In this document: in pieces, positions 16,725 through 49,730 of the stretch
Layout of the letters: each line of letters starts with the position of its first letter
How positions within the stretch are numbered: position 1 is the stretch's first letter
NCBI GenBank assembly: GCA_964410185.1
Contig: CAYPFM010000001.1
Span: forward strand, 208,860-272,859
Length of the DNA stretch: 64,000 nucleotides
Source: an uncultured Candidatus Saccharibacteria bacterium
Lineage (GTDB): Bacteria > Patescibacteriota > Saccharimonadia > Saccharimonadales > JAUPVS01
Direction: 5' to 3'
Notes under the pieces: generated by a model
Databases searched by the model: none
What the model was told of the DNA's origin: nothing
Seen by the model: the letters and a program-made list of their open reading frames with translations, nothing else
Translations under genes and position numbers: made by a program

Positions 16725-18047
16725 ATGAGAGTTTTGAGCGATGAAGTCATCAAGCATGTTGGCAAGCCTATCCAAATCGAAGGTTGGTTACACAAAAAGC
16801 GACTAATGGGTGGACTGGCGTTTATTAATGTCCGCGATCGTCGCGGCCTGGTGCAGGTGGTTGTGCAGGATAAGGACGAAGTTGAGAAGCTGCGTGGGCA
16901 ACAAATTGGCACGGTACTACGGGTGAGCGGCACAGTAGTTGAGGAGCCCCGTGCTCCTGGTGGCGCCGAGCTGCACGATCCCGAACTGACGGTGTTAGTC
17001 CCTGTCACCGATGAACCGCCTATCGAAATTGATAAGCCCCTGAGTCATAAATCAGAACACCTCGAAACCCTATTCGACAACCGTGTTATTGGCCTACGCA
17101 ACCTGCAGGAGCAGGCAGTCTTCAAGACCAAGGCTCGTGTGGCTCAGTCTATCCGGGAGTTTTTTGCCGATAATGAGTTCACCGAAATCCATACGCCAAA
17201 GTTATTGGCCGAGGCTACAGAAGGCGGCGCCGAAGTCTTTCAGCTTGATTACTTTGGTAAGACCGCCACGCTTGCTCAATCGGCACAATTCTACAAGCAA
17301 ATTATGGTCGGTGTTTTTGAGTGTGTTTACGAAATCGGCTCAACCTATCGCGCCGAACTGAGCGCCACCACCCGGCACATGTCGGAGTTCCTGACTGTTG
17401 ACGGAGAAATGGGTTTTGTAACTTTTGACGAGCTCATGAATACCGTTGGTCGCCTGTTGATTCATGTTGTTGATGACACCTGGAAGCACTGTGAACCAAG
17501 CTTTAAGAGCTGGAACGTAGCTAAGGCCAAGCTACCCGCCACTGCCGAGGAGATCCCGCGCATTGCAATCAGTGAAATACACGAAATGTTCCTAAAGGCC
17601 ACCAAAGAAGATCACACTAACGAGGGTGACCTCGCTCCAGCCGAAGAGAAGTGGATTTGCGAATGGGCCAAGAAGAACAAGGGCAGCGACGCCGTCTTTG
17701 TTACCGGCTGGTCAGCCAAAGATAAAACCTTCAAGTTTTATCATAAAGCGAGTCAGGATGACCCGACGATTGCCGAACGAGCCGACCTACTTTTCCGCGG
17801 CATCGAAATCACGACCCTGAGTATGCGCCAAAATGACTACAAGGTACTGGTTGAGCAACTGAAGGCACTTGGTGGTAACCCGGATAACCCGGGCTATGCC
17901 GCTTACTTAAGCGCCTTTAAGTTTGGTATGCCTCCGCACGGTGGTTTTGGTTTGGGCCTCGAACGCTTAGTTGAAAAACTTCTTAACCTCAGTAACGTCA
18001 AAGAAGCGGCTTTATTCCCACGTGATATCAATCGTCTAGCGCCATAA
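16725..18047 (+). CDS. aspS: aspartate--tRNA ligase, short archaeal/type-2 form (possibly non-discriminating)
   Basis: 440 aa with an N-terminal OB fold and class II motifs (FRAE-like YRAELS, GGFGLGLERLV). Confidence 0.85.
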   Translation: MRVLSDEVIKHVGKPIQIEGWLHKKRLMGGLAFINVRDRRGLVQVVVQDKDEVEKLRGQQIGTVLRVSGTVVEEPRAPGGAELHDPELTVLVPVTDEPPIEIDKPLSHKSEHLETLFDNRVIGLRNLQEQAVFKTKARVAQSIREFFADNEFTEIHTPKLLAEATEGGAEVFQLDYFGKTATLAQSAQFYKQIMVGVFECVYEIGSTYRAELSATTRHMSEFLTVDGEMGFVTFDELMNTVGRLLIHVVDDTWKHCEPSFKSWNVAKAKLPATAEEIPRIAISEIHEMFLKATKEDHTNEGDLAPAEEKWICEWAKKNKGSDAVFVTGWSAKDKTFKFYHKASQDDPTIAERADLLFRGIEITTLSMRQNDYKVLVEQLKALGGNPDNPGYAAYLSAFKFGMPPHGGFGLGLERLVEKLLNLSNVKEAALFPRDINRLAP

Positions 18048-33475: not shown

Positions 33476-34774
33476 ATGTCCTCGGTCCCTGACATCCTAA
33501 TCCTCACTAGCCTCTCCCCAAAAGAGCAGGCTGGTATGTTGTATTCACCAAACCTCTCTGCTAAAGCCCAGGAGTATAGCCGGTACGAGGGGCAAATGTG
33601 GTCCAGCTATCTAGAGACTGAGCCGGGTGAACTTCTCGAAGAACATGAAGCACGGCGTCTTGCCGACTATTACCACATCAAAACTGCCGAAAAACTCCAG
33701 AATAATCCAAAGAATGCGCTGCTATGGACGGAACGGTTTAATCAGGCAGGGGTGGAGATATACGGTGATATTGACCCGGCAGAGGTTCAGTCTATTGCCG
33801 TGCAAGAACTTAGCTTACTTGGTGATGGTGATGGTGTCGGTTCGTTTGTCGTAGGAGCTTACCAGCGTCTAGCTGGAGAAGGCGGTGAGGTTATAAAATC
33901 TAAAGAAGCTCAGATCGATTTTGGGGAATTCAGGGATGTCTTATTCGATCAATTTAAACCAATCGTGGACACAATTGAAGCACTAGAAGAAGGTCAGTTT
34001 GAAGCACCGGCCGTTCGTGCTTGCTTTCAGGAAATAATCGACAAGTTAGCGAAAGAAGACCCCGAGTGGGACAACTGGAAAATCACAAATCCAGACGGGA
34101 AGACAATGTTAGCAGTAGTGTCACCAAACAAAGAAATCGAAATACCCGATGGTCGTGGCCCGGTTGGTAGTAAGCAGGAGCTGTTCGGGTTGGCCTTGCA
34201 TGAGTTGGGCGTCCATGCGACACGTGCGGTCAACGGTCAAAAAACGGGGGATAGCATGATGGAAAGAAATGGTTTACCAAACTATATAGACTTCGAAGAA
34301 GGGCTTGGTATCTTTTTTGAGTATATGGCCACTGGCAAAGTTCCTGAAAAAGCACGGGACAGGTATGTTGATATCGCCTTGGCAACCGGAGTTGTAGCGG
34401 GCTATCGTCTCAGCCGCGAGGAACTGATAGAACTGGGTAGTAGCCGTCAACAAGCGCGTGCTATGGCTGCGGGGCAAGAACAAGTTGCAGATCATGAAGC
34501 GGTAATCAGCCACGTCAATCGTATTTTTCGCGGTGGTAATGGTCTGCCAATACGCGACGTGAATGGCACCATCATCGACCAAGCGGTCTTCAATAAGGAC
34601 CTGGTGTACTACCAAGGTTTTCTCAAGGTGCAGGACTTTATTCGGACACAACTGCAAGCCGGCCTTTCACCCAAACAGGTGATTGATTATGTGTTGGCAG
34701 GTAAGTTTGATGCCACCAATCCTCGGCACGTTGCTTACGTTGCCCAAAAGCACCAGCTCTCGCTTACTGCGTAA
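33476..34774 (+). CDS. putative zinc metallopeptidase (HExxH; possibly DUF1704-like)
   Basis: LALHELGVHATRA contains HExxH. A downstream FEEGLGIFFEY motif follows. The family assignment is from memory only. Confidence 0.45.
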   Translation: MSSVPDILILTSLSPKEQAGMLYSPNLSAKAQEYSRYEGQMWSSYLETEPGELLEEHEARRLADYYHIKTAEKLQNNPKNALLWTERFNQAGVEIYGDIDPAEVQSIAVQELSLLGDGDGVGSFVVGAYQRLAGEGGEVIKSKEAQIDFGEFRDVLFDQFKPIVDTIEALEEGQFEAPAVRACFQEIIDKLAKEDPEWDNWKITNPDGKTMLAVVSPNKEIEIPDGRGPVGSKQELFGLALHELGVHATRAVNGQKTGDSMMERNGLPNYIDFEEGLGIFFEYMATGKVPEKARDRYVDIALATGVVAGYRLSREELIELGSSRQQARAMAAGQEQVADHEAVISHVNRIFRGGNGLPIRDVNGTIIDQAVFNKDLVYYQGFLKVQDFIRTQLQAGLSPKQVIDYVLAGKFDATNPRHVAYVAQKHQLSLTA

Positions 34775-34871
34775 CCTGTGCTCGAAGCAAGCTTCTGTGC
34801 GCGACATTGTTCTTCGAACCACTTTTGCTTTGCAAAAGCCTTGGTTTGCTCCCAACAACTCATGAGTAAAT

Positions 34872-34893
34872 AAAAACCATCCGGAAGGATGGT
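34872..34893 (-). terminator. intrinsic terminator oriented for the minus strand
   Basis: accatcc-ggaa-ggatggt hairpin (34876-34893). The T-run falls on the minus strand (A-run 34872-34876 on plus). It lies 10 nt from the left att core. Confidence 0.55.
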
Positions 34894-35132
34894 CTTGATT
34901 TACTGGTGGGGACGGTGTCGGCTTATTTGAAACACGCCCATTAGAAGACATCCTAGCAGATATAGCAGTTGGCTGGAATGATACTCGGCGTATCATTGGT
35001 AATCTGCGGTCCGGCACAACACCTGAATTAAGTTATGTCCTATAAGAGGTCATGACTATAAGACGAAAGTGTTTGAAACAAACAATATGCTTATGCTATG
35101 TCATACGGCATACACGGACTAAAATAGTATGA

Positions 35133-36884
35133 ATGGCATACCATCTTATAAGCATAGGAATAGCGGCATACTCAAACCCAGCAAATAATCTGGACTTCCC
35201 TGATGACGATGCGGGCGAGCTAAGCGCCATCATGAGACACAGTTTGGGTAGTGAGCTTACTTACGATGCTTTGCTTAGAGACAGTGAGGCAACCCAAATA
35301 GGCATCAGGACTGCACTTGAGGCGGATGAGCTAAAGGGCGCTACTGCTGGTGATACGCTCATTGTTTATTATTCCGGTCACGGCGCTTTAGTGCAGAACA
35401 ACGGCAGCGGGGAGGCTTATCTTGCACCTTACGATGTAAGTGGCAATGTTGCAGTATCGGGCATCTCTACAACTGAGATAAAAGCATTGCTTGATAATCT
35501 TAACCACGGAAACAAAATCGTGCTGCTGGATTGCTGCTATAGCGGTGGAGCGAATGCAAAAAGCATCAGCCATGTTAAGCACAAAGATTTGACTAGCATC
35601 AAGGCATTTCAAAATCAGAGCTATGCCGAGGGGACTTTTGTGTTTACTGCCTGTAAAGAAGATGAAACTGCTATTGAAGTACAAGACCTTAAGCACGGGC
35701 TATTTACATACCAGCTTATTGAAGAGTTGGTTAAAGGCACTGGCGAGAGCGTTGCTTTGAGTAGTTTACATGACCCAGTCACTAAGGCGGTAGAGGAGAC
35801 TGCGAAGAAGTATTCGCACAAACAAACCCCTACTATACAGATGAACGCGAAGGGTAGTATGACACTACCAAAGCTGGCTAAGCCACCCGTACTAAAGCCC
35901 GAACTTATAAAAGTTCCGACAGTCCAAAACGAAAAGCCGACTGTCGTGGCTGCGCCACAGATTGATATTAGTGACAAAAAAACGCAGGAGCTTGTTCAAG
36001 CGACTATTAGTTTGATAGAAGGTGCATCTAACACTAAATTGGGTCAAATCACCTTTCGCTCAACACTAAGCAAGATACTAGCCATTGTTAAAGACGCACA
36101 TGCTGCTCAACCTAAGCATGTAAACAAAGCCGATGAAGTTGCCGTTTTAGTGGGTAAACTTGAGGCTAAGAGTTTTCAGCTCATGCTTACTGCTGCCGTG
36201 GTTTCTGTAGCTGGCAACGAACAAACTCTTAAGATTTTCAGCGAAGAGGTCGGAGAGATGCTGGTTTGGAAACGAGGTCAGAGCGGTCTCGTAGCCCTGA
36301 TTGAGATGCCTGACGTTATTTTCTTGGCAGTTCTATACATTATGTTCGTGTGCGCTATTTATACAGATGACTATATGCCCGTCGGCAAACTACTCAATAC
36401 CCATGTATACGACCAGTATAGCGGTCGTAGTGGGAGCTATAAGCGCGTTTCACAACACTACGAGATACACTACGCCGATGCTTTAGGCGGTAACGCAAAA
36501 ACCGTAATGACACATATTGTTGACCTGCTTACTTCGCAGGAGTGGCTACTTGAACTGCTTGGGATTAACAAGGAAAAATTAACAAGTCTCATACTCCAAG
36601 CAAACTTATGCCTATGCGTCGTGATGTCACGGAGCGGAGAACGCACATATCCGGGCTACAATGACTTTGAGCTTGCTAATGTTGCACCGTTCGTAAATCG
36701 CATACGCACAGACGAAACAACACGCACCAATGTAGCCAAGCACTTACTAGGGGCTAAGCAGGATGAAGTCGCGCAAATATTTGCGGATGAGGTTGCAAAG
36801 CTTAACCAATCTAGCGGTAGCCATTGGTGGAGCTACTTAAGACCAGAGAGCTTTACTCAAGATGTTGATTTGGAGCAAGACTAA
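35133..36884 (+). CDS. caspase-like (peptidase C14) protease with an unknown ~330-aa C-terminal domain
   Basis: His-Cys dyad context: LIVYYSGHGAL and IVLLDCCYSGG. I recognise nothing in the C-terminal 330 aa. Confidence 0.75.
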   Translation: MAYHLISIGIAAYSNPANNLDFPDDDAGELSAIMRHSLGSELTYDALLRDSEATQIGIRTALEADELKGATAGDTLIVYYSGHGALVQNNGSGEAYLAPYDVSGNVAVSGISTTEIKALLDNLNHGNKIVLLDCCYSGGANAKSISHVKHKDLTSIKAFQNQSYAEGTFVFTACKEDETAIEVQDLKHGLFTYQLIEELVKGTGESVALSSLHDPVTKAVEETAKKYSHKQTPTIQMNAKGSMTLPKLAKPPVLKPELIKVPTVQNEKPTVVAAPQIDISDKKTQELVQATISLIEGASNTKLGQITFRSTLSKILAIVKDAHAAQPKHVNKADEVAVLVGKLEAKSFQLMLTAAVVSVAGNEQTLKIFSEEVGEMLVWKRGQSGLVALIEMPDVIFLAVLYIMFVCAIYTDDYMPVGKLLNTHVYDQYSGRSGSYKRVSQHYEIHYADALGGNAKTVMTHIVDLLTSQEWLLELLGINKEKLTSLILQANLCLCVVMSRSGERTYPGYNDFELANVAPFVNRIRTDETTRTNVAKHLLGAKQDEVAQIFADEVAKLNQSSGSHWWSYLRPESFTQDVDLEQD

Positions 36885-36940
36885 GGTCATCCGTATTTTT
36901 TATAAGAAAATGGATAGCGTAAGTCTCCACTACCCTTGCT

Positions 36941-36998
36941 ATGGACACTCCGCTGTATAAGTACCCAATTTTTGGGGGTGAGTTGACCAACGCTTTTT
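36941..36998. repeat. direct repeat R1 (~58 nt)
   Basis: ATGGACACTCCGCTGTATAAGTACCCAATTTTTGGGGG...CCAACGCTTTTT, similar to R2 at 38638-38695. Confidence 0.7.
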
Positions 36999-37563
36999 AA
37001 ACTTCTAGCAACTTATCGCGTAAGCTATCAAACTTTGTATAACCAGCTCTTTTATTAAAGTGACCAGCATTAGGTATGAATGACAGTTCAACGCCTAAGT
37101 GTTTTGCTAACTCTTTGCCATTATCTAATCCAACATAAGGGTCATCATCAGACTGATATACAACGAAGTTTTCAGCATTTTGTTTAATTTTGTCCCAATC
37201 AAAATCAAAACCGCTAAAGGCATTATCACGGTCATAGTTCAGTATTGGTCTAACGCCTATTGGTGCGCCGACAAAGAATGCCGCTTTAATCGGGTGGTCT
37301 AGCTTTTCCAAGACACGAAGTGTAAAAATACCGCCTAAGCTATGTCCAACAATAATCGTGTCTTTGGTAATCTTATCATCGTACTCTTTCAGGACATCAA
37401 ACCATTCAGAAATCTTTGCGGGAACGACAGGCGGCGAAGGAAACTGCGGAACGGTAACTTCATAGCCTTTTGCTTCAAGCTCCTGCTTTAGCCAAGGAAA
37501 CCAATTTTCCTGCGGGTGTCCTTCTGTGCCATGAAATATAAATACGTTTGCTAGCTTGCTCAT
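36997..37563 (-). CDS. alpha/beta serine hydrolase (YdeN/RBBP9-like)
   Basis: 188 aa with a GHSLGG nucleophile elbow. Short single-domain hydrolase with a late Asp and His (DDDPYV, NAGHF). Confidence 0.7.
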   Translation of the reverse strand: MSKLANVFIFHGTEGHPQENWFPWLKQELEAKGYEVTVPQFPSPPVVPAKISEWFDVLKEYDDKITKDTIIVGHSLGGIFTLRVLEKLDHPIKAAFFVGAPIGVRPILNYDRDNAFSGFDFDWDKIKQNAENFVVYQSDDDPYVGLDNGKELAKHLGVELSFIPNAGHFNKRAGYTKFDSLRDKLLEV

Positions 37564-38081
37564 AGTAGCTCCTTTGCTGTTTGCAGAAATGCCAAGTCAC
37601 GCTTTTGTATGAATTGACCTTCTAGGTTGTCGGGCTTGTCCTGTAATAACAAGGCTATCGTATCATCTATGTCCTTGGCTTTTATTTCAAACATGCCTTC
37701 AGCAAGTTCACCTTCTTCTAGTGCTGATGCAACTTGCTCCCCAACTTGCTTAGCAAGATAGCAGTAGGATGTTTGTTCCAAGCCGCCATCATCGTAATTG
37801 CGGTATTCAACGACAGTGCCAAGTTCAGCTACAATTTCAGCCTTGCAGCCAACTTCTTCCATCAACTCACGCTCTAGTGCTTGTTTTATATCTTCGCCAT
37901 CGTCTATACCACCGCCAGGTAGCTTATGATAGCCGTGCTTACTTACATTGAGTAGGTAAACCTGACCGCTGTTATCAAGCAGAACTGCCCTAGCTGCACC
38001 TCTCTTTCTAAAAGTAGAAGTATCAACTACCGGGCTATTCCGTACGATGTCTTGTTCTTTGATAGTTAGCAGGTTCTTCAT
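37560..38081 (-). CDS. NUDIX hydrolase
   Basis: Nudix box GGGIDDGEDIKQALERELMEEVGC. A 4-nt overlap with the downstream hydrolase gene. Confidence 0.8.
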   Translation of the reverse strand: MKNLLTIKEQDIVRNSPVVDTSTFRKRGAARAVLLDNSGQVYLLNVSKHGYHKLPGGGIDDGEDIKQALERELMEEVGCKAEIVAELGTVVEYRNYDDGGLEQTSYCYLAKQVGEQVASALEEGELAEGMFEIKAKDIDDTIALLLQDKPDNLEGQFIQKRDLAFLQTAKELL

Positions 38082-38560
38082 TACATTGAACCTCTGGCAT
38101 TCTGGTCAACTAAGCCACCAATTACTACGGCAGAATAAATCTCTGTATCGCCGTCATAAATCCACTCATTAACGGTGTGGTCGGTAATATCACCTTCAAC
38201 AGTACTTTTATATGTCAGCTTATCTTTTTTATATTCAGCAGGACCACGATAGGGATTATCCTCACCCGGATGTTGCAACGCCTCACGCAGAAAGTCATAA
38301 ACTTCATCTGCTGGCTTATCTGTTTTCCCGTAATAAACTTCCATAAAAACAGGCTCGGTTTTATAAAATATCACTAAGCGCCCTCCGTATGGTTCGCCAC
38401 CAAAGAAGTTATCGTGCATGTGATAATCGCCGTCTGTAAACTCAATCGTTCGTGAACCGTCTTGCTCCTTAACGGTTTTAGCTGTTCCTGTTGCGTGAGG
38501 TATATTTGCCTTTATCAGAAATGCTTTTAGTTCATCAAGATTTACGCTTTGTGTATCCAT
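38081..38560 (-). CDS. hypothetical protein (first gene of the three-gene operon)
   Basis: Track ORF 38081..38686. I prefer the ATG at 38560 (MDTQSVNLDELKAF) because the longer form reads through repeat R2. A 1-nt overlap with the Nudix gene. Confidence 0.55.
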   Translation of the reverse strand: MDTQSVNLDELKAFLIKANIPHATGTAKTVKEQDGSRTIEFTDGDYHMHDNFFGGEPYGGRLVIFYKTEPVFMEVYYGKTDKPADEVYDFLREALQHPGEDNPYRGPAEYKKDKLTYKSTVEGDITDHTVNEWIYDGDTEIYSAVVIGGLVDQNARGSM

Positions 38561-38637
38561 AACTACATAATAACAGCGGTAACTTACAATATCTACCTGA
38601 AAAGGAATGGGGGCGGGGTCGCCCGTTAATCTGGTAA

Positions 38638-38695
38638 ATGGCACTCCGCTGTATAAATGCCTAATTTTTGGGAGCAAAATCGCCAAGCGTTTTTT
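38638..38695. repeat. direct repeat R2 (~58 nt)
   Basis: ATGGCACTCCGCTGTATAAATGCCTAATTTTTGGGAG...CCAAGCGTTTTTT. The first 20 nt are nearly identical to R1 and the remainder is roughly three-quarters identical, judged by eye. Confidence 0.7.
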
Positions 38696-38940
38696 GGCAA
38701 AAAAGGAATGCCGAATATTTGGGGCTGACTTTGAAAATGAGTTATATTAAGAGTACATATTAACAATCTATGTATTTCATGTAGCAGCCAATACGGAGAC
38801 GACCCGCTCAAAGACCGGGGCAGCACAATACATGAAATGTAAGTAAAACGAGATACGACCTCGGCAAAAAACGGACTTACGAGCGTGGCTAACGATGCCA
38901 TAGCGTACTTTTGTATGTTTGTGGCTTGGGAGTAAAACCG

Positions 38941-39090
38941 TGAGTGCCGTATCTCAAGAGCAAAGCGAGACTGAAAGCAGTCTTAAAGACCTGATTGATG
39001 TTCTACAAGAAATAGATACATCAAGCCCGATGGCTAAAACAAACGAACAATCAATAAGCGACAATAACGGCGGGAGGATTATTCTGTAAT
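38941..39090 (+). CDS. candidate small acidic protein upstream of recombinase A (below track cutoff)
   Basis: Frame open from 38893. GTG at 38941 (or TTG at 38911) to TAA at 39088-39090. ...SLKDLIDVLQEID... Confidence 0.25.
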
Positions 39091-39109
39091 CTAACGCTAT
39101 ACTTGCAAT

Positions 39110-40717
39110 ATGTACGATGAACAAGAGGTAGACTTAAAGACGCTTAAATATGTCATGTACCTTCGCAAATCCACTGAGGATGAAGGAAGACAGATTAGGT
39201 CTATTGGCGACCAAGAAAAAGATTGTAAAGATTTAGTTAAACGGCTAGGCCTAAATGTCATTGATACAATTAGAGAAGAAAAGTCGGCAAAAAAGCCCGG
39301 TCATCGCCCCGCTTTTCTAGACATGCTCAAACGAATAAGACGCAAAGAGTTTGATGCGATTATTGCTTGGCATCCAGACCGACTATCGCGCAATAGTATT
39401 GAAAGCGGCAAAATATTACACATGCTGGACACGGATGTTATAAAAGACATCCGTTTTGTTTCTCATCAGTTTTCAAATGATGCAAATGGCAAGATGCTTT
39501 TGGGGATGCTATTTGTGTTTAGTAAACATTATTCCGATGACCTTTCTTCTAAAGTTAAGCGAGGCGTAAGAGGCAACCTTCGTGACTATAAATCGGGTGG
39601 CACGCCAAAACATGGCTACATACGCGACAACGAGGGTATATACCGCATAGATGGTAAGAACTTTGAGATTATCCAGCGTGCTTGGCAAATGAGAGCTAAT
39701 GGCGAGAATATTCAAATGATATGCGACTTTATAAATGAGCAAGGTTATCAAAAGTTCTTCAAAAAAGAAGACAAAGGGCATCAGACATTTGTAATGACGG
39801 ATAGCGTACTTAGCAACCTTTTCAAAGACACCTTTTATTATGGTGAGCTTGTGCAATCCGATGAAGTCATAGATTTAGTAAAAGCACCTGTACCTTTTGA
39901 GCCTATGATTGACCGTGACACATATTTCAGGGCGCAAGAGTACGGCAGAACTAACCAACGAACCAGCAAAGGTCGTAAGCCAATATTGCCATTACGCTAT
40001 ATGGTGTATTGCTCGGTTTGCGAGTTTGATAGACCAATGCAGGTTGGTCGTTCAAGAGGACGAGATGGAGTTACTCGCTTATATTACAGATGTCTTAATA
40101 GCAAATGCACCAGAGCGTACGGCAGTAGAAGTATTAGAGGCAAGCTAGTTTTTGACGAGATTGACCGAGTTATTAAAGAAAAACTAGAAAGTCTTCCGCC
40201 GGAGGCATATGACAAATACATTAAGGAAGTAAAAACTTATAGCACAACCGCCAAGACGAAAATCAGAGCCGACTTAACTAGAGCTAAAGCTACGCGAAAT
40301 GGTTACGAGGAAAGAGTTATTAAGTTGTCTACATCACTTGATTTAATTTCTAACAAGACAGCACTCAAGACAATTACAGACCAAATTAGCGAGGCAACTC
40401 AAGAGATGAACAGACTAGACCAAGCTATCAAAAAATATCAGAATGATATAGAGAAGGCTACTTTGCCTAAGATTGACCGCAAAGAGTTCGAAAGCACTAT
40501 TTCTCAACTGGGCGCTAAGCTAAAAGCAGCGGATGTGGTTCAAAAGGACATAATTGCTAGTAATTTGTTTTTGAACCTATATTTTGACCATCAAAAAATG
40601 ACGCACTACTCCTTAAAAGAGCCGTTCGCGTCATTAGTTGAGTTAAATGCAATCCAACTTGGTGGGGGTGGTTGGAATCGAACCAACTACCAAGTGGTTA
40701 TGAGCCGCCTGCTCTAA
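39110..40717 (+). CDS. large serine recombinase/integrase; last ~16 codons are antisense tRNA sequence
   Basis: YLRKSTEDE...DRLSRN resolvase catalytic domain, recombinase domain, zinc ribbon (CSVCEF...YYRCLNSKC) and coiled coil. The ORF crosses the att core at 40660. Confidence 0.85.
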   Translation: MYDEQEVDLKTLKYVMYLRKSTEDEGRQIRSIGDQEKDCKDLVKRLGLNVIDTIREEKSAKKPGHRPAFLDMLKRIRRKEFDAIIAWHPDRLSRNSIESGKILHMLDTDVIKDIRFVSHQFSNDANGKMLLGMLFVFSKHYSDDLSSKVKRGVRGNLRDYKSGGTPKHGYIRDNEGIYRIDGKNFEIIQRAWQMRANGENIQMICDFINEQGYQKFFKKEDKGHQTFVMTDSVLSNLFKDTFYYGELVQSDEVIDLVKAPVPFEPMIDRDTYFRAQEYGRTNQRTSKGRKPILPLRYMVYCSVCEFDRPMQVGRSRGRDGVTRLYYRCLNSKCTRAYGSRSIRGKLVFDEIDRVIKEKLESLPPEAYDKYIKEVKTYSTTAKTKIRADLTRAKATRNGYEERVIKLSTSLDLISNKTALKTITDQISEATQEMNRLDQAIKKYQNDIEKATLPKIDRKEFESTISQLGAKLKAADVVQKDIIASNLFLNLYFDHQKMTHYSLKEPFASLVELNAIQLGGGGWNRTNYQVVMSRLL

Positions 40718-40735
40718 CCGATGAGCTACACCCCC
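40660..40735 (-). tRNA. tRNA with CAU anticodon, most like tRNA-Ile2 (lysidine type); tRNA-Met not excluded
   Basis: GGGGGTGTAGCTCATCGGTTAGAGCAGGCGGCTCATAACCACTTGGTAGTTGGTTCGATTCCAACCACCCCCACCA folds as a cloverleaf of 76 nt with CCA encoded. The anticodon arm and variable region resemble E. coli ileX as I remember it. Confidence 0.8.
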
Positions 40736-42116: not shown

Positions 42117-42793
42117 TTGAATTCAGTGACGGGCGGGATGTTGTAGAGCTTGACCATGGCGGGGTCGGTGGCTGTACCGCCGTAGAGAACGACCCAATTG
42201 CCGTCGGCCTGCTTGAGATAGTAAGTCTTGCTTGCGTTCGCTGCGTTGGCGGTCGTCGCACAAGTGGCAGTGACCGAGGCGTAGTTCTTGTCGGTTGAGT
42301 AGAGGACTTTCTTTTTATCGGTGCCTGAAGTTCCCTGCGTATAGACCAGCGCTTTGGCAGTGGTTGGATCAACTTGTGCCTGGCAGTAGGCGGTGGTGGA
42401 TTTAATGACTAGCTCATCAGCAGTTGGCTGCGTGGTATCCTTCGTCAGTTTGTCGTTATCGGCCTTGAGCGCCGCGTTTTGAGTTTGCAAATCAGTTATC
42501 TGGCTCTCGAGTTCACCACGTTGGGCAATCAGTCGGTCGACATGTTGATGCTGCCAGTAAAACACACCATAACCAGCCGCGCCCGCGAGAGCGAGTACGA
42601 CAAAAATCATGAGTAAAGCTTTGAGGAACTTATGGCCACCCTTTTTCGCCTTAGCAGGTGGTGGAGTCGGGGTGACAGGAACGTCAGGCTTAAAAGGGTC
42701 TTCTTGAACAGGAGGAGTCGGCGTGACAAGCGGTGCTTGGGGGCCGGGTCCAGGAGGGTTTGAGACGGGTTTAAAATCCATATCCATTTGCAT
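42113..42793 (-). CDS. hypothetical protein (Pro-rich N-terminus, TM helix, coiled coil)
   Basis: 226-aa ORF. Confidence 0.5.
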   Translation of the reverse strand: MQMDMDFKPVSNPPGPGPQAPLVTPTPPVQEDPFKPDVPVTPTPPPAKAKKGGHKFLKALLMIFVVLALAGAAGYGVFYWQHQHVDRLIAQRGELESQITDLQTQNAALKADNDKLTKDTTQPTADELVIKSTTAYCQAQVDPTTAKALVYTQGTSGTDKKKVLYSTDKNYASVTATCATTANAANASKTYYLKQADGNWVVLYGGTATDPAMVKLYNIPPVTEFK

Positions 42794-42993
42794 CCATTAT
42801 TACCGAAGTTAATAATAAACACAAGCGGAAATGAAATGGTAGCCATAGATAGAATTACTTGGAACTTAATTAAGACTGAACTGATTAGTATGTCCCAAAT
42901 CGTCACAATGTACGATAAACATTATCGGGGGTTAGCCTAAGCGGACGTACTAGAACCCCTGAAAGAGCTATAAGCATTAGCATAACATTTTAT

Positions 42994-43021
42994 TTGATAT
43001 GTCAATATTCTCTAGTACAAT
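42994..43021 (+). promoter_or_regulatory. promoter TTGATA-16-TACAAT
   Basis: Upstream of the ORF at 43045, which has a gaggga RBS. Confidence 0.45.
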
Positions 43022-43044
43022 GGTAAGTAAACCGAGGGACGCAC

Positions 43045-45042
43045 ATGAGAATTAGCCACGTTGAGATAGAAAACTACCGATCAATCGAAAAGATTGAGCT
43101 AAGAGTGCTTGACCCGACCATAGCCTGTTTTATTGGAGGGAATGGTAGTGGAAAATCAAACATCTTAAGAGCTATTGCTGCAATGAAGACTGGTCAAAAG
43201 TTTGATGATGACGATTTTTATGTTGAGGCAGGCGAGGAAGATGAGATTAAAGTATCGCTTACATTTATTCTGGAAAAATCAGACTTAGAGCTTTTAGAGC
43301 CGATTGGGCTAAAGTCACAACACGTAAGCGGGTTTAAGGTTACGAAAGTACAGAAGCTTGGGCAGAAACACACCGTATATGCTGAGTTACTAGGTTATGA
43401 CAATGTATTAGAAAAGCGACTTGAGAGTAAGCTTAATGTCATTACGCGTGCCATATCGGCGCAACTGAAACCTGAAGACGACCAAGAAGCCCATCTTAAG
43501 TTGAGCGCGACGATTCGTAACAGTGAAGAAACTAAAGAAGTAATAGACGCTAGTATTGTCAGTCTGATAACCACCCTTAAGCAATATGTGCCAGATGTCT
43601 CTACGCTGGGCATCGACGAGAAAGAACTTGAAGCTTTGGCAAACTTTAAACAGCCCAATTTTGCATACAAAGACCTGTTTGGTGCTATTGATATAGAGCT
43701 ACTTTCACTCGACGACTATCAAATAGCAAATGAGGCTCCCATTGAAGAGCTCCAAGTTAGAGATAGTCATCCTTTCCTATTTGACCTACTCTCCATATCT
43801 GGGAAGTCTGCTACTGACTTTTTGAATGCTGAGGGCAATAAAAAAATCAATATCTCAGAACAGGCTTCAGAACAACTTACCGATACAATGCAGAAAGTTT
43901 GGGGGTCTCATGGGCTACCGCTCGTCGTTCACAAAGATAAGAAGGACACGACCCTATCATTCTGTAGCAGGACGCCAAACCAGAAGGCGATTCCTTTAGA
44001 GAGTGCGAGTAAGGGTACACAATGGTTTCTTCGATTTTACACGAGACTAATAACTGCAAGGAATCACTCGAAGCGTATTATTTGGCTTTTTGATGAGCCA
44101 GACCTTGGTCTTCATGCAAAGTCCCAACAGGACTTAGTGAAACTCATTGAGGAACAGTCTGGCGACTCCCAAATACTATATTCAACGCATCAACCAATAA
44201 TGATTCAATGGCATCGTCTAGAACGTATTCATGTTGTTGAGAACGTCCCGAAGGTAAAACAGGAAAAGTTTGGAAAGGGTACAAAGGTACATCAACGGTT
44301 CTGGGATGATGGGGATTTTGACTCGCCTCTTAAAGAGGTGTTAAAGCTATTTATTGGTGAAGATATTCTCTGGACAAAGGAACATGTGGTTGTCGAAGGC
44401 CCTTCAGATTACTTCTACTTTGTGGGCTGGGCTAATCGTTTTGCCAACGATAATCCAAATGCAAAAATCTGGAATGATGAGTTCTCTTCTCCAAGCAGAG
44501 CTTTTGTTCCGGCCGGTAGTATCACTAACATCCCTCTCTTCTTATTCTTTCTCACAAAGAGGAATGGCGCAGAAACTGTAAACTGGGCGTCTATAACTGA
44601 CACAGGGAAAGATCACAGTGATATTAAGCAGGTAATAAATAGTACATCTCGCCTAAAAAGGTTTAGCGACCGAGTTATTGAATTGCAGAGGCCTGAAGGG
44701 GAGAAACTTGATAAAGACTTTGACGTTGAAGATCTTTTTGACCGACAAGAGTTCTACGACAAGGCAGCAGAGTACTATGCAGCTACGTATCCAGACTGCA
44801 AATTCCCAAACTATAAGGACTTAGCTAAACAAGAAAAAATAACCAAAACCTTAACTTCACAGCTAAAGAAACTTAACAAAGAGAAGATGCCTAACATATC
44901 GTTTGATAAGCCTGGTGTGGCTCAGTATATATACTCCCAGCTAGTGGTTGAAAACAAACCATTCTCGGAAGTATCTTTAAAGAACTTTAGATCGACGCTT
45001 AATGCAATCAATAGGGCATTTAGTCTTGACCCAACTGATTAG
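43045..45042 (+). CDS. OLD-family nuclease: ABC-type ATPase fused to a TOPRIM-like domain (class 1 OLD or fused PARIS-like)
   Basis: Walker A GGNGSGKS, signature-like SKGTQ, Walker B IIWLFDEPDLGLH and H-loop YSTHQP. This is followed by HVVVEGPSDYFYF (TOPRIM/DUF4435-type Glu). Confidence 0.7.
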   Translation: MRISHVEIENYRSIEKIELRVLDPTIACFIGGNGSGKSNILRAIAAMKTGQKFDDDDFYVEAGEEDEIKVSLTFILEKSDLELLEPIGLKSQHVSGFKVTKVQKLGQKHTVYAELLGYDNVLEKRLESKLNVITRAISAQLKPEDDQEAHLKLSATIRNSEETKEVIDASIVSLITTLKQYVPDVSTLGIDEKELEALANFKQPNFAYKDLFGAIDIELLSLDDYQIANEAPIEELQVRDSHPFLFDLLSISGKSATDFLNAEGNKKINISEQASEQLTDTMQKVWGSHGLPLVVHKDKKDTTLSFCSRTPNQKAIPLESASKGTQWFLRFYTRLITARNHSKRIIWLFDEPDLGLHAKSQQDLVKLIEEQSGDSQILYSTHQPIMIQWHRLERIHVVENVPKVKQEKFGKGTKVHQRFWDDGDFDSPLKEVLKLFIGEDILWTKEHVVVEGPSDYFYFVGWANRFANDNPNAKIWNDEFSSPSRAFVPAGSITNIPLFLFFLTKRNGAETVNWASITDTGKDHSDIKQVINSTSRLKRFSDRVIELQRPEGEKLDKDFDVEDLFDRQEFYDKAAEYYAATYPDCKFPNYKDLAKQEKITKTLTSQLKKLNKEKMPNISFDKPGVAQYIYSQLVVENKPFSEVSLKNFRSTLNAINRAFSLDPTD

Positions 45043-45124
45043 CCTTTAGGATACTAGCTTCTATTTCCGCTAAAAGCTCAAAATATTCAACAAGCACAGC
45101 TAGTTCCTCGTCGCTTAGTTTCAT
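45020..45124 (-). CDS. candidate 34-aa protein translationally coupled to the upstream membrane protein
   Basis: ATGA start/stop overlap at 45121-45124. Translation MKLSDEELAVLVEYFELLAEIEASILKANQLGQD. Confidence 0.35.
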   Translation of the reverse strand: MKLSDEELAVLVEYFELLAEIEASILKANQLGQD

Positions 45125-45549
45125 TGGGTGCTATCGGGAGCTGTAAGTACTGGTGGCTCTGGTATTGTTGGTAGCTGTTGTCGGGTGCCTTCAGATTCAC
45201 TTATCGTTCTGTCCAGATCAGCTTGTGAGACAGTGAGCCAAGCGCCCATCGTAAGACCGTAGGCTAAAAGGATAAAGAGTATTGGCTTAAGAATGCGCCA
45301 CCACATTTTGGGCTTTGGTTTGCCAGAGCGTTTGCGAATGTAATAGTTCGCGGCGAGGATGGTAATAACGAGAAGCCCAACACGAGTAAAAGGGAAAATG
45401 GGGTAAAGCCACTGATGGGTAGCGTTTTCAACTTGAGCTACAATCGTTTCAAAGCCAAAGTTCACTAACAGGAAAATGCCGAAAGCCGCAGAATAAACCT
45501 TAACTCTACTCACTTTTTGTTTGGGTTTTGGGGAGCTGTCGTCCGTCAT
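45121..45549 (-). CDS. hypothetical membrane protein (3-4 TM helices)
   Basis: 142-aa ORF with a ggagga RBS upstream. Confidence 0.55.
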   Translation of the reverse strand: MTDDSSPKPKQKVSRVKVYSAAFGIFLLVNFGFETIVAQVENATHQWLYPIFPFTRVGLLVITILAANYYIRKRSGKPKPKMWWRILKPILFILLAYGLTMGAWLTVSQADLDRTISESEGTRQQLPTIPEPPVLTAPDSTQ

Positions 45550-45587
45550 GGCTGATCCTCCATTATGTTATTAATGGGGAGGCCTGA

Positions 45588-45616
45588 ATAAAAAAGGACA
45601 ACCCCTCTAGGTTGTC
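45588..45616 (-). terminator. intrinsic terminator inside the leader of the 45549 gene
   Basis: gacaacc / ggttgtc 7-bp perfect stem (45597-45616). The T-run falls on the minus strand (plus-strand ataaaaaa at 45588-45595). Confidence 0.5.
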
Positions 45617-45757
45617 TACACCAGCACAAGGTTGTACCCTGTGTTTTTCGAGAGGTTGCCCATTGTTGGGTACAACCAATCAAAGATTGGCTTTCACAAG
45701 CTTGTACTGATGTAGACCCCATAATAATAACAGAGAAGTTACTTCAAAATCATCACG

Positions 45758-46261
45758 GTGTATGATGTTCCTATGGCTAAACAGGTGAAGGATAAAAAAT
45801 GGCGTATAATTCGCCCACCGTTAGGAACTGGGTTCTATCTTCCAACAAGGGAAGATTTACTTAAGATAAAGCGGGGCGATGTCGTGAAACTCATCTTTCA
45901 GGCAGGCGAAGACGCACCCGAAAGGATGTGGGTTCAAGTAGAAAAATGTGGAGACTCTGAGCACTGGACTGGACGGCTTGATAATGACCCTGCGCAAGAA
46001 TACTTGGCCTCAGTACTAAAATACAAAGATGTAATTCGCTTTCACCCGCTTGATGTTATTAATATTGATTCCGAAAATAAAGTTCCAGAAGAGCCGAGCA
46101 TTGAACAGATTATAGATAAAAAACTAGGTGACGTTATCAACAGCGTGAACAGGCCGTGGTATAAAAACCCTAACATCATGGTACCGGCTGCCGCCACAAT
46201 CATTGTTGGCCTGCTAAGTGCAGTCGTAACTCTAATCGCTGCTCTCATTAATAAACACTGA
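45758..46261 (+). CDS. hypothetical protein with C-terminal TM anchor (possibly DUF2314-like)
   Basis: 167 aa. ERMWVQVEKCGDSEHWTGRLDNDP pattern. C-terminal helix AATIIVGLLSAVVTLIAALI. Confidence 0.45.
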   Translation: MYDVPMAKQVKDKKWRIIRPPLGTGFYLPTREDLLKIKRGDVVKLIFQAGEDAPERMWVQVEKCGDSEHWTGRLDNDPAQEYLASVLKYKDVIRFHPLDVINIDSENKVPEEPSIEQIIDKKLGDVINSVNRPWYKNPNIMVPAAATIIVGLLSAVVTLIAALINKH

Positions 46262-46531
46262 ACAGAGGTAGATTCTAGGTACACTTGCTTTGTCTCTACG
46301 CGCGAGCGTCTTCACCCCCCCTGCATAGTAGGGGGGTAGGCGTCGTACATTGTCTGATAATGTGCGATGACTATTGAAGCTAACGCATGTTGCAAAAGAA
46401 CTTTTGCGACTTGCTCCGCGCGAATAGCCGGTGTAATTATGTACCCCCACCTTCTCTTTTGTTTTTCCTTCTTCTCTACTTGGTGCACACACAAAATTTT
46501 TTTCTAGGGCAAAGTGTTTAATAATTAGGGC

Positions 46532-46996
46532 ATGACTGCGAATAATAACGGCAAGGTAGTAACCCAAGCACAGCTAGTGCGCATGACTTACATGAAGTTG
46601 TTAGAGCTGGAAGTTAAGTTTGACTTACTTGACACAAAACTTGAAAGCCTCCAGCAAGACGTAAGTAGGAATGTGTTCGTACGTAGTGAGTTAATTAAAA
46701 CTAGATTTGACCACAGGACAAACGAGCTTTATATCACGGAGCACTTTAAGATACCTTTTGAGGGTAACGAAGCCGCTCTGCTAGCCGTCATGTTTAAGAA
46801 GTCTACTGGCCAGCCTAAGAGAACAACCAAGTTCTATCCAGCAGAGCTTGCCGGTACGTTCCAAGACGCCACAGATGGTCTTAAAACACCTAAGGCAATA
46901 CACGGAACGATTGTCAGGATTGATTCAAGCATTAAGCACAGAACAATGGGCTTAGAGGTCTTTAAGATTACAACTAAAGTTTTCTATTTTTTGTAG
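46532..46996 (+). CDS. hypothetical protein
   Basis: 154-aa ORF with an N-terminal coiled-coil-like segment. Confidence 0.5.
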   Translation: MTANNNGKVVTQAQLVRMTYMKLLELEVKFDLLDTKLESLQQDVSRNVFVRSELIKTRFDHRTNELYITEHFKIPFEGNEAALLAVMFKKSTGQPKRTTKFYPAELAGTFQDATDGLKTPKAIHGTIVRIDSSIKHRTMGLEVFKITTKVFYFL

Positions 46997-47053
46997 CACC
47001 CCCTAGTAAGTTCGCGTGAGTTCACTTGCTATCGGTTTTGTTTAAATGGGCAA

Positions 47054-47233
47054 ATGCTATTTAGAGCAAACCAAGCCATCCCGATTTCAGAAGCTCGTGA
47101 GCTACTAGGCGACGAGAGCGACAGTATGACCGACGAAGAAGTGTTAAGGCTGATTGAAGACTTTGACATCATTGCACAGTACACAATTAAATTAGTTCAA
47201 AAGTTTAAACAAAATAAAGCCACAACAGGTTAA
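47054..47233 (+). CDS. candidate 59-aa protein upstream of recombinase B (below track cutoff)
   Basis: MLFRANQAIPISEARELLGDESDSMTDEEVLRLIEDFDIIAQYTIKLVQKFKQNKATTG. Ends 24 nt before the recombinase ATG. Confidence 0.4.
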   Translation: MLFRANQAIPISEARELLGDESDSMTDEEVLRLIEDFDIIAQYTIKLVQKFKQNKATTG

Positions 47234-47257
47234 TATAATGTTAAAATAGTTCTAAGT

Positions 47258-48808
47258 ATGAATAGTGTTGTATATGTCAGGGTATCAACAGACGAGCAAG
47301 TGCTGGGCACGAGCTTAGATATGCAACAAAAACAGTGTTTAGAGTTTGCAAAGGCGCATGGCTGGAACGTACCGAAGGAAAATGTCTTTCGCGATGAGGG
47401 CGAATCAGCAAAGGCTACCAATCGGCCGAAGCTTCTCGCCATGCTTGAGCATTGTCGCAAGAACAAACGCAAAATTGAAAAGTGTATTGTTTGGAAGTTA
47501 GATAGGTTTGCTCGCAACTCTGACGATCATGTAATGATACGTGCCATACTGCGCAAGAATGGCGTATCACTCGTGTCCGTTACCGAGCCTATTGATGACA
47601 GCCCGACCGGCAAACTTATGGAAACGGTGCTTTCAGGCTTCGCGCAGTTTGATAATGAAGTCAGAACACACCGAACAACGGAAGGAATGAAAAGACGCCT
47701 TGAGCAGGGCGGGTGGCCGCATGACGCACCTATTGGTTATATAAAGGCGCGCACTCGTGAGGGCGTAACAACCATCGCTCCGCACTCAGAAATGGCACCA
47801 AAGCTCACACTCTTTTTAGAAACATTTTCAACCGGCCAATACACCGTCAGACAAGCAACTGACCTCGCCTATGAATTAGGTATACGAAACGGTAAAGGTG
47901 AAAAGCGAACATGGCAAACAATTGAAAACACTATCAAGAACCCGATTTACGCTGGGTACATTCAGTCTAAGTACACAGACGGCAATCGCTACGTTGGCTT
48001 GCACGAGGCGTTGATTAGCGAAGCAACCTTTAACAAGAACCAGAGTATCCTTGTTGGTAAACAAAAAGTGTTTACCCGCAGTGACGAGGGTGACTATCCA
48101 TTACGGCGAGACTTTTTACGCTGCATACACTGCGGTAAATTCGTAACTGCGAGTGCGCCAAAAGGGGCAAGCGGTATTAAGTACCCACGGTATAGCTGTA
48201 TTAATTGCAAGACATCGGTAATTGGTAAAAAGGTCAGCAAATCAAGCGAAGAGATTCATAAAGAGTTCCGTGAGGTATTGTCACGAATCCGCTACAAGGA
48301 AAACAGGCTCAAAGTTTTCAAACGTATTGTGTTGCAGCGTTGGTGCGATGAGTATGATGACGCGCTCAAGGCAGCCTATCAAGTTAATAAAGAGCTTGAA
48401 ACCTTGCAGACCGAACGCGCCAAGGTTAATCGCAAGTTCGCCCGCGATGAGTATACGTTTACCGAGAAGCAGGAATTAATCAGAGACATTGACGCCGAAA
48501 TCGTAGACTACATGAAGAAAAAAGTTGAAGCCGACGAGTATGCCAATCAAAAGGAGCAAATCATTGATAATGCCATGCTGTTCATGAACGAGCCATCAGA
48601 GTTCTGGAACAGAGCACCATTACAGATACAAAAGGCAGTACAGCATACACTTTTCCCGCATGGTTTGGCCTATGACTTTGAAAATGGCTTTGGAACTATT
48701 GAGCTGAACGAGTCGTATCTGTTGCTACAAAAAATAGCGCCCGAAGACGCTAATGGTTCTATTGTGGTAGCGGCGACAAGATTTGAACTTGTGACCCCAG
48801 GCTTATGA
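47258..48808 (+). CDS. large serine recombinase/integrase; last ~11 codons are antisense tRNA sequence
   Basis: VYVRVSTDEQ...DRFARN catalytic domain, recombinase domain, zinc ribbon (CIHCGK...YSCINC) and coiled coil. The ORF crosses the att core at 48765. Confidence 0.85.
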   Translation: MNSVVYVRVSTDEQVLGTSLDMQQKQCLEFAKAHGWNVPKENVFRDEGESAKATNRPKLLAMLEHCRKNKRKIEKCIVWKLDRFARNSDDHVMIRAILRKNGVSLVSVTEPIDDSPTGKLMETVLSGFAQFDNEVRTHRTTEGMKRRLEQGGWPHDAPIGYIKARTREGVTTIAPHSEMAPKLTLFLETFSTGQYTVRQATDLAYELGIRNGKGEKRTWQTIENTIKNPIYAGYIQSKYTDGNRYVGLHEALISEATFNKNQSILVGKQKVFTRSDEGDYPLRRDFLRCIHCGKFVTASAPKGASGIKYPRYSCINCKTSVIGKKVSKSSEEIHKEFREVLSRIRYKENRLKVFKRIVLQRWCDEYDDALKAAYQVNKELETLQTERAKVNRKFARDEYTFTEKQELIRDIDAEIVDYMKKKVEADEYANQKEQIIDNAMLFMNEPSEFWNRAPLQIQKAVQHTLFPHGLAYDFENGFGTIELNESYLLLQKIAPEDANGSIVVAATRFELVTPGL

Positions 48809-48841
48809 GTCCTGTGCTCTAACCAACTGAGCTACGCCGCC
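48765..48841 (-). tRNA. elongator tRNA-Met (CAU)
   Basis: GGCGGCGTAGCTCAGTTGGTTAGAGCACAGGACTCATAAGCCTGGGGTCACAAGTTCAAATCTTGTCGCCGCTACCA, 77 nt with CCA encoded. The D arm and variable region are near-identical to E. coli elongator tRNA-Met as I remember it. Confidence 0.8.
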
Positions 48842-49655: not shown

Positions 49656-49730
49656 CGCGGGGTGGAGCAGTGGCAGCTCGCGTGGCTCATAACCACGAGG
49701 TCGCAGGTTCGAGTCCTGCCCCCGCTACCA
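49656..49730 (+). tRNA. initiator tRNA-fMet (CAU)
   Basis: CGCGGGGTGGAGCAGTGGCAGCTCGCGTGGCTCATAACCACGAGGTCGCAGGTTCGAGTCCTGCCCCCGCTACCA. The 1:72 pair is unpaired (C/U). The first 15 nt are identical to E. coli tRNA-fMet as I remember it. CCA encoded. Confidence 0.85.

Follow-up and report, generated by a model that had tools for sequence, protein, structure and literature searches.

Phage Mx8 takes the 3' end of a tRNA gene as its target, and in mycobacteriophage BPs and its relatives, whose integrases are tyrosine recombinases, the gene that is split on integration is that of the repressor. Here we describe a case in which the integrase gene itself is split. A 64,000-nucleotide stretch of DNA (the window), whose host is a member of the Saccharimonadales as judged from homologues, very probably contains two independent integrative elements, A and B, at the 3' ends of different tRNA-Met genes; each has its own large serine recombinase (LSR), and in each the attachment site of the free element (attP) lies within the LSR open reading frame (ORF), 31-44 codons before the natural stop. 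According to PMC6070905 (citing Tojo 1996 and Magrini 1999), the attP of Mx8 is situated within int, so that integration yields a new 3' end and the enzyme is altered, not inactivated, and Islander names Mx8 and SSV as integrases extending across attP (PMC4383910). The 'suicidal' integrases of SSV type are tyrosine recombinases, 'so far restricted to archaea', for which the rebuilding of an intact or hybrid gene in tandem insertions was predicted, not observed (PMC7253208). In mycobacteriophages of the BPs type, attP lies in a coding gene whose product is truncated on integration, with a change in behaviour (PMC4557955). The directionality of a serine integrase can, moreover, be reprogrammed by a C-terminal appendage in engineered fusions of integrase with a recombination directionality factor (RDF; PMC5737554), and such a fusion has been used for cryo-electron microscopy (10.1101/2025.05.02.651858). 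These fusions are artificial, carry a whole directionality factor and favour excision, whereas the natural tail considered here sits on the form that must integrate.

Serine integrases are stated as not known to target tRNA genes (PMC4383910 and PMC7192596, both from the same group), and among the tycheposons of Prochlorococcus an LSR is present in a minority (10.1101/2020.12.28.424599). Full-text literature searches, the coverage of which is incomplete so that an earlier description is possible, returned no LSR with an intragenic attP. The first-pass annotation of the window likewise knew of precedents among tyrosine integrases only, in agreement with PMC7253208, PMC4383910 and PMC6070905. 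The sequence comparisons reported below support an extension of intragenic attP with C-terminal remodelling, as known from tyrosine integrases, to tRNA-targeting LSRs; intragenic attP would thereby occur also in a recombinase superfamily of unrelated mechanism, and in bacteria that belong to the candidate phyla radiation.

Two islands of low guanine-plus-cytosine (GC) content mark the elements, A at ~34904-40667 (5.76 kb) and B at 42837-48771 (5.93 kb), with ~42-45% GC (~35-41 kb and 43-49 kb) as opposed to ~49-51% in the flanks and in the 2.1-kb gap between the islands. ARAGORN finds three tRNA-Met genes in the window, and two of these, on the minus strand, are overlapped by the 3' ends of plus-strand LSR ORFs. 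The features concerned, with the left and right attachment sites of the integrated elements termed attL and attR, are as follows (aa, amino acids; nt, nucleotides).

39110-40717, plus strand: LSR A in its integrated form, 535 aa, containing the Resolvase and Recombinase domains of Pfam, encoded by the element as far as the core and then ending in 16 tRNA-antisense residues
47258-48808, plus strand: LSR B in its integrated form, 516 aa (Pfam), its ~11 terminal residues being tRNA antisense
40660-40735, minus strand: target tRNA-Met (CAU) of A (ARAGORN; Rfam tRNA, 63.7 bits), its 3'-terminal 8 nt being the attR core at 40660-40667
48765-48841, minus strand: target tRNA-Met (CAU) of B (ARAGORN; Rfam tRNA, 68.5 bits), its 3'-terminal 7 nt being the attR core at 48765-48771
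34904-34911, plus strand: attL core of element A, the 8-nt TGGTGGGG, the same as the tRNA-Met 3' end and present again at 40660-40667, with host-type GC on its left
42837-42843, plus strand: attL core of element B, TGGTAGC, repeated at 48765-48771
34905-35045, plus strand: tail A, the final 46 codons and stop of the circular-form integrase A, not translatable in the integrated state
42839-42940, plus strand: tail B, the final 33 codons and stop of the circular-form integrase B

The first bases of both cores, TGG, are the exact antisense of the tRNA 3' CCA. LSR A overlaps its tRNA-Met by 58 nt, and its tail in the integrated state, GGGGWNRTNYQVVMSRLL followed by a stop, is tRNA antisense; for LSR B the overlap is 44 nt. 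The claim of the first-pass annotation that the last ~16 codons of A and the last ~11 of B are the complement of a tRNA is thus borne out. When the gene is joined through the core to the far end of its island, it encodes 563 aa in A and 536 aa in B. Past the core, frame A reads GGDGVGLFETRPLEDILADIAVGWNDTRRIIGNLRSGTTPELSYVL through 44 open codons to a stop at 35043-35045, and frame B reads VAIDRITWNLIKTELISMSQIVTMYDKHYRGLA through 31 open codons to a stop at 42938-42940, the core being translated as a Gly-Gly junction in A and a Val-Ala junction in B. Both continuations had been reported in the first-pass annotation with correct positions and codon counts, as had the in-frame TGA at 34896-34898, just upstream of tail A. 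At both left ends only the frame in register with the LSR is open, and the other two stop within 1-12 codons. In local shuffles, open frames of such length occurred with P = 0.043 (A) and 0.073 (B); as these values are modest, the open frames alone are only suggestive, and the comparative evidence is decisive. The same modest values could be taken to mean that the frames are compositional, or that the left end is conserved as an attP arm DNA site or as RNA, an explanation which also draws on the fact that the first ~25 bp past the core must belong to attP. The Rfam scan argues against an RNA, as tRNAs were the sole families matched in the window. Tail A was also considered as an independent gene and rejected, as it has no ATG, GTG or TTG in its first half and an in-frame TGA just upstream, and from one locus to the next the host DNA on its left is unrelated.

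The circularised protein A, used as query, returned ~1,000 relatives, and almost every one of the 120 best matches terminates within a few residues past the core, in what is again tRNA antisense (GGGGWT, GGGGWNRTNYQVVMSRLL or GRGERT directly before the stop, or ..RIRTDDL..). Alignment with the C-termini of homologues, as the first-pass annotation had proposed, therefore speaks against extended tails only at first sight: most homologues do stop 4-16 residues past the core, yet those residues are the tRNA antisense of integrated copies, and the conserved tails of these short homologues are found at the other end of the same elements. Of the loci taken with 10-kb flanks from 50 species-representative genomes, 37 have a family A LSR that enters an antisense tRNA, which is of type Met, Ser, Pro or Leu, and the codon phase of the TGG is identical in 35 of the 37. 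In several apparent exceptions a group I intron splits the tRNA, which ARAGORN then misses (Rfam-confirmed in L016). Joining the A loci through the upstream core copy, which lies 1.5-8.8 kb before the integrase start, yields a tail of 45-53 residues in ~24-26 loci. These tails are homologous (...LFETRPLEDILADIAVGW...ELSYVL in the window, ...SFELLMADLAQWFVNNP..W...ELNYRY in L029 and ...TVERIISELADWFIEHP..W...PAYQY in L043) and have a conserved C-terminal end, Y-x-[LYF]. A tail profile independent of the core and built from other genomes located an orphan tail in 34 loci, in every case on the strand of the integrase and upstream of it, and among the 2,457 six-frame segments of the window its sole significant match is 34899-35042 (E = 6.8e-15; next, 0.22). 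When the profile was built from distant A relatives only, the tail A segment still ranked first in the window (E = 0.026).

At the nucleotide level, tail A is 72-93% identical to the left ends of eight relatives (L003, L004, L006, L007, L016, L017, L020 and L022). Over tail codons 3-46, the ratio of nonsynonymous to synonymous substitution rates (dN/dS) among nine close relatives is 0.08-0.28 in 34 of 36 pairs, the other two being saturated in dS, which is often near saturation among the computed pairs; ratios in this range indicate that the segment is selected as protein. BLAST comparisons further show that related A elements have only two parts in common, the left 177 bp and a stretch that begins ~370-550 bp upstream of the integrase and includes the integrase itself, with differing cargo between. 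As it takes a circle to make these two parts contiguous, the continuity of the backbone favours an intragenic attP. Searched with tail A, a library of 1.84 billion proteins returned almost only 'proteins' of 42-91 aa in which the match is always at or near the C-terminal end (P0241-P0254). These are spurious gene calls at attL ends; among the representatives in the library, no full-length LSR with a tail of the close A type was found. Database C-termini of such integrases are, then, mostly tRNA-antisense artefacts, and the true tails are called as orphan ORFs of 40-90 aa.

Several further observations concern the targets and copies of family A. The group I intron interrupts the target tRNA-Met after the anticodon (L016, 11613-11819, minus strand; Rfam RF00028, 66.6 bits) and is found also in L008, L009, L017, L022 and L032; in intron-bearing targets the LSR ORF sometimes extends into the intron antisense (P0026 and P0028, 553-559 aa). 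In L018 (10001-10768), an A-type integrase ORF is broken after 255 codons and the core is one G short (TGTGGGGG), as in a decaying integrated copy.

The uninterrupted gene is found in circles and in tandem arrays. Two Logan contigs, L140 (9,322 bp when trimmed, with the A-superfamily LSR P0094) and L141 (4,414 bp when trimmed, with the B-family LSR P0179), have identical 30-nt ends that equal the k-1 overlap of a circular path, and other ORFs, of 242 and 538 aa, cross the contig ends seamlessly. There is no tRNA on either contig. In both, the LSR ORF spans the tRNA-like core (TGGTGGGG and TGGTAG, respectively) and runs uninterrupted into the tail, and P0094 aligns end to end, tail included, with the gene rebuilt from the integrated locus L029, at 62% identity. 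In the tandem array of L133, a core and tail at 337 are followed by a first integrase that runs across another core, at 5660, and on through a full tail, and by a second integrase that ends in tRNA-Met; the array positions are 337, 5660 and 11356. In L134 (3983-5593 and 9197-9463), the downstream element has decayed, leaving an integrase remnant of 77 aa that is fused to the tRNA, and in L001, L027 and L033 an orphan tail lies upstream of a full-length gene. The upstream integrase of such an array is fused to the tail of its neighbour, and is thus a hybrid gene. The 'full-length' database proteins are not all free forms, as those of L133, L134, L001, L027 and L033 belong to tandem arrays; only L140 and L141 are circular, and L002 may be of either kind. 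A full-length integrase at internal array junctions would be unexpected if attP recombined with a true target site (attB) only.

With these results, the explanation by composition or non-coding conservation becomes exceedingly improbable, and we consider it refuted. A dN/dS far below 1 extends over 132 nt, well past any 50-bp attachment site; amino-acid profiles find the tails where the DNA has diverged; the strand and position of the orphan tails are uniform; and in circular contigs, as in tandem ones, the tail physically continues the reading frame of the gene. Base composition alone, which the first-pass annotation had named as a possible source of the open frames, might have sufficed for the shuffle values, but tail homology and dN/dS show selection on protein.

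The evidence for family B is of the same kind. Nearly all of 120 B homologues end in tRNA antisense of the type ..VVAATGIEPVTSGL before the stop. Three database proteins (P0179, P0184 and P0192) are full-length with long tails that contain the motif T.WN.IK.EL..M.QI, of which tail B shares TWNLIKTEL. The pattern W-N-x-[IL] recurs in the reconstructed B-type tails of L136, L133 and L076, and in those of distant LSRs at tRNA-Glu and tRNA-His (L054, L059 and L071). L136 is a complete genome of 1.0 Mb (CP023991.1), the LSR of which is 88% identical to B. A B-tail profile built from other contigs has its sole significant match in the window at 42764-42937 (E = 2.7e-7; next, 0.13), and the ratio of nonsynonymous to synonymous differences (pN/pS) in the B tail is 0.36, from one close pair with few sites. 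Homologous tails at the far ends of the elements, tails contiguous with the gene in L140 and L141 and at the junctions of L133 and L134, and purifying selection on the A tail together support, for both recombinases, the proposal of the first-pass annotation that the 3' end of the integrase gene contains the attachment site; its corollary, that free and integrated forms encode different C-termini, gains from the same comparative evidence.

Beyond close relatives, where LSR genes enter antisense tRNAs at 12 further tRNA types, an LSR-sized ORF ends in an antisense tRNA in 39 of 87 further loci, mostly metagenome contigs with LSRs 23-47% identical to B, and tails were recovered for few of these 39. 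The metagenome scan with the B alignment ran on generic N-terminal motifs and hence returned mostly distant LSRs, which is uninformative for close B relatives but shows how broadly LSRs overlap tRNAs. The tRNAs at those ends are of 14 types, including Glu, Ala, Gln, Asn, Lys, Asp, His, Arg, Pro, Leu, Met and Phe; serine integrases can thus be specialists for tRNA genes, and no fewer than 14 tRNA types were seen at LSR 3' ends. Identity blocks between attachment sites are 6-13 nt long in both families, beginning at the TGG of the tRNA end, and island finders that expect long repeats of tRNA fragments will miss such elements.

A and B are bona fide LSRs. Both have the resolvase-type catalytic domain PF00239 (E = 1.9e-21 in A and 1.7e-34 in B) and the recombinase domain PF07508. 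The catalytic Arg and Ser are invariant (R19/S21 in A1, R8/S10 in A2), as are the family A cysteines C301, C304 and C333, with C328 present in at least 90% of sequences. The AlphaFold (AF2) model of the circular-form A has a mean predicted local distance difference test (pLDDT) score of 80.9, the expected domains and a long coiled coil (helices 379-450), and Foldseek matched it to the full-length SPbeta, phiC31, Bxb1 and A118 integrases (E = 1e-17 to 1e-8). A and B are only 29% identical, over the N-terminal 178 residues, and therefore represent two distant LSR families. Like the canonical LSRs (phiC31, Bxb1, A118 and SPbeta), they have catalytic, recombinase and zinc-ribbon regions with a coiled-coil insert, what appears to be short attachment-site identity, and the integrase at the element end. 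In the known canonical LSRs, by contrast, attP lies outside the gene and directionality depends on a separate factor, whereas A and B have an intragenic attP and target tRNA 3' ends. In the integrated genes ~92-94% of the protein is left, with all of the recognised LSR domains. Tail A is modelled with pLDDT below 55, as a Gly-rich linker encoded by the core, an amphipathic helix (530-548) and a disordered end.

The circular gene encodes the full protein, whose C-terminal tail is conserved. When the element enters the tRNA 3' end, the tRNA stays intact while the last 31-44 codons are shifted, without a start codon, to the far end of the element, and the remaining gene, comprising the catalytic, recombinase, zinc-ribbon and coiled-coil regions, is capped by 11-16 tRNA-antisense residues until a chance stop. 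Excision, or a second element in tandem, rebuilds the full-length gene. The likeness to the IntP and IntX forms of Mx8 is close, as there too attP lies in the 3' part of the gene, integration gives a new 3' end and the remainder is intact. Mx8 Int differs in being a tyrosine recombinase of unrelated mechanism, with no coiled-coil directionality control and another attachment-site architecture, and Mx8 is a single phage, as opposed to the two broad families of small cargo elements here. By analogy with Mx8, the tail swap may modulate the enzyme, such that integration state would reversibly edit the C-terminus and so its activity or directionality, a reading to which we tentatively give not quite an even chance. 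The first-pass annotation had also suggested, with reserve, that the differing C-termini could serve as a switch of directionality or activity. The full-length form might be the efficient integrase and the tail-less form an altered or attenuated one that stabilises the insertion, and excision might be carried out by the tail-less form, with or without a small protein encoded upstream. Possible, though on balance doubtful, is the more specific proposal that the tail is a putative built-in, cis-acting determinant of directionality or activity in at least two LSR families of Patescibacteria, whereby the full-length form would promote attP x attB and the tail-less form permit or limit attL x attR, and the structure of its own gene would tell the integrase whether the element is integrated. 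The control of directionality is a central open problem for serine integrases and for genome engineering, and the isoform pair offers a simple natural comparison.

The SSV-type systems suggest another fate. If the tail were essential, integration would kill the recombinase, and the element could be mobilised again only by a full-length enzyme in trans or in a tandem array. Such a lock-in accords with the conservation of the tail, which hence matters to the protein, with the existence of tandem arrays that regenerate full-length, partly hybrid genes, and with decayed copies (the frameshifted integrase of L018, the remnant in L134 and the orphan tails of L017). The parallels extend to a translated attachment site inside the integrase ORF, tRNA targets and partition of the gene to both element ends; the tandem reconstitution reported as unobserved for SSV-type integrases is seen here in L133 and L134. 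Those integrases are, however, archaeal tyrosine recombinases, whereas A and B are serine recombinases of Saccharimonadales bacteria, and the SSV-type split gives two inactive pseudogenes, whereas here only a C-terminal tail of 31-44 residues is removed and the known domains stay together. The loss amounts to only ~6-8% of the protein, and nearly all integrated genes are intact across more than 500 codons. Pfam and PADLOC annotation, moreover, recognised no replication genes on the elements that could keep a free pool. The orphan tails are intact and under purifying selection though untranslatable in place, which implies that the elements pass often through the circular form; on this argument excision from the integrated state would be feasible, and the tail-less protein, with all its known domains, is probably not simply dead. 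We accordingly judge a lethal integration to be unlikely.

We think it about as unlikely that the overlap is neutral, which is to say that attP must mimic a tRNA 3' end in compact elements, that the tail serves some unrelated role such as stability or as a degron, and that the truncated enzyme behaves the same. The elements are indeed small (3.1-10.4 kb), the tail is predicted to be flexible, and an ORF for a candidate directionality factor is present. The ends of several B tails, with their small hydrophobic residues (..GLA, ..RAA and ..VAV), recall C-terminal degradation tags. Yet the arrangement, including its codon phase relative to the CCA, is the same in two LSR families whose N-terminal domains are only 29% identical, and at four tRNA types in family A, and the conserved tail sequence with its Y-x-[LYF] end argues for a specific function.

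Against a tail-based switch, and against parts of the architecture on which it depends, stand several points. The small ORF upstream of the integrase may be a conventional directionality factor, in which case such a switch is unnecessary to explain the data. As pLDDT is low and only five tailed sequences are in the alignment, no docking site can be inferred for the tail. Analysis of dyad symmetry in attP and attB gave no clear centre for the crossover dinucleotide. When the window was compared by BLAST with every locus retrieved, no close relative had an unoccupied tRNA, and host flanks differ even for the 96%-identical L003; as no empty attB was recovered from a close relative, the element boundaries rest on cores, composition and homology. 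The evidence for family B, though it points in the same direction, is thinner than that for A, and identical tandem copies could in principle also give rise to a circular assembly.

In an alignment of attB from 10 A-clade loci (window 34864-34903), the tRNA half is conserved and the host-side half is without conservation between genomes. Site recognition may thus rest largely on one half-site, which might also account for tandem insertion. A hairpin, accatccGGAAggatggt, at ~34868-34895, read by eye with runs of A and T flanking it on both strands, looks like a bidirectional terminator which, before the insertion, the original tRNA-Met shared with the host gene upstream (33476-34774).

The small ORFs and the cargo of the two elements are listed below.

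38919-39089, plus strand: small ORF A, 56 aa, ending ...SISDNNGGRIIL, directly upstream of integrase A and kept in 15 of 17 A-family loci examined, distant ones included
47054-47233, plus strand: small ORF B, 59 aa, ...ISEARELLGDES..TDEEV..LIEDFDIIAQY..., upstream of integrase B
35133-36884, plus strand: caspase-like protease of element A (Pfam; caspase and PDC-S65 hits in PADLOC), the C-terminal region of which is PDC-S65-like
36997-37563, minus strand: serine hydrolase of element A (Pfam)
37560-38081, minus strand: NUDIX protein of element A (Pfam)
38081-38686, minus strand: DUF5680 protein of element A (Pfam)
43045-45042, plus strand: AriA/OLD/GajA-like ATPase of element B (Pfam AAA_15; PADLOC AriA, 1.1e-28), with no obvious partner gene
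45121-45549, minus strand: membrane protein, cargo of element B
45758-46261 and 46532-46996, plus strand: two ORFs of unknown function, cargo of element B
35057-35080, plus strand: non-coding left-end motif of element A, TATAAGACGAAAGnGTTTGAAACA, 11 nt past the tail A stop

Small ORF B is conserved in L136, L138, L133, L076 and L134 and in the circular L141, with the pattern ...EARELLG..SDEE...IED.D.IAQY. Neither the tail nor small ORFs A and B match Pfam or PADLOC; from their conserved position, the small ORFs could encode candidate directionality factors or regulators. The cargo of both elements looks like defence genes on the strength of its annotation, and the caspase-like protease and the AriA/OLD-like ATPase make it likely that the elements carry immune genes from one member of the Saccharibacteria to another. 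Schlafen/AlbA_2, Peptidase_M78 and SNase are among the cargo of related elements. Among IMG/VR viral contigs there were no relatives of the elements, which are thus not recognised viruses.

Different LSR elements can occupy several tRNA-Met genes of a single genome. In L005, a third and more distant LSR (12370-13830, minus strand; 31% identical to B) reads towards the 3' end of another tRNA-Met, on the opposite strand (12252-12326, plus), and sits 0.6 kb from an A-type element. In L017, three orphan B-type tails (13797-14012, 15717-15833 and 16989-17099, minus strand) lie within 3.3 kb beside a tRNA-Met (13298-13372, plus strand), with no integrase between them, and appear to be scars of a decayed array. 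The third tRNA-Met of the window (49656-49730, plus strand) has no LSR ORF entering its 3' end, and GC at 49-52 kb is slightly low there (0.46-0.475). The left-end motif of element A is present in nine of nine close relatives and ends where BLAST conservation ends, at 35080-35081; it could be a terminator, promoter, operator or protein binding site, and its octamer TTTGAAAC recurs within the coding sequence of tail A, at the codons for LFET.

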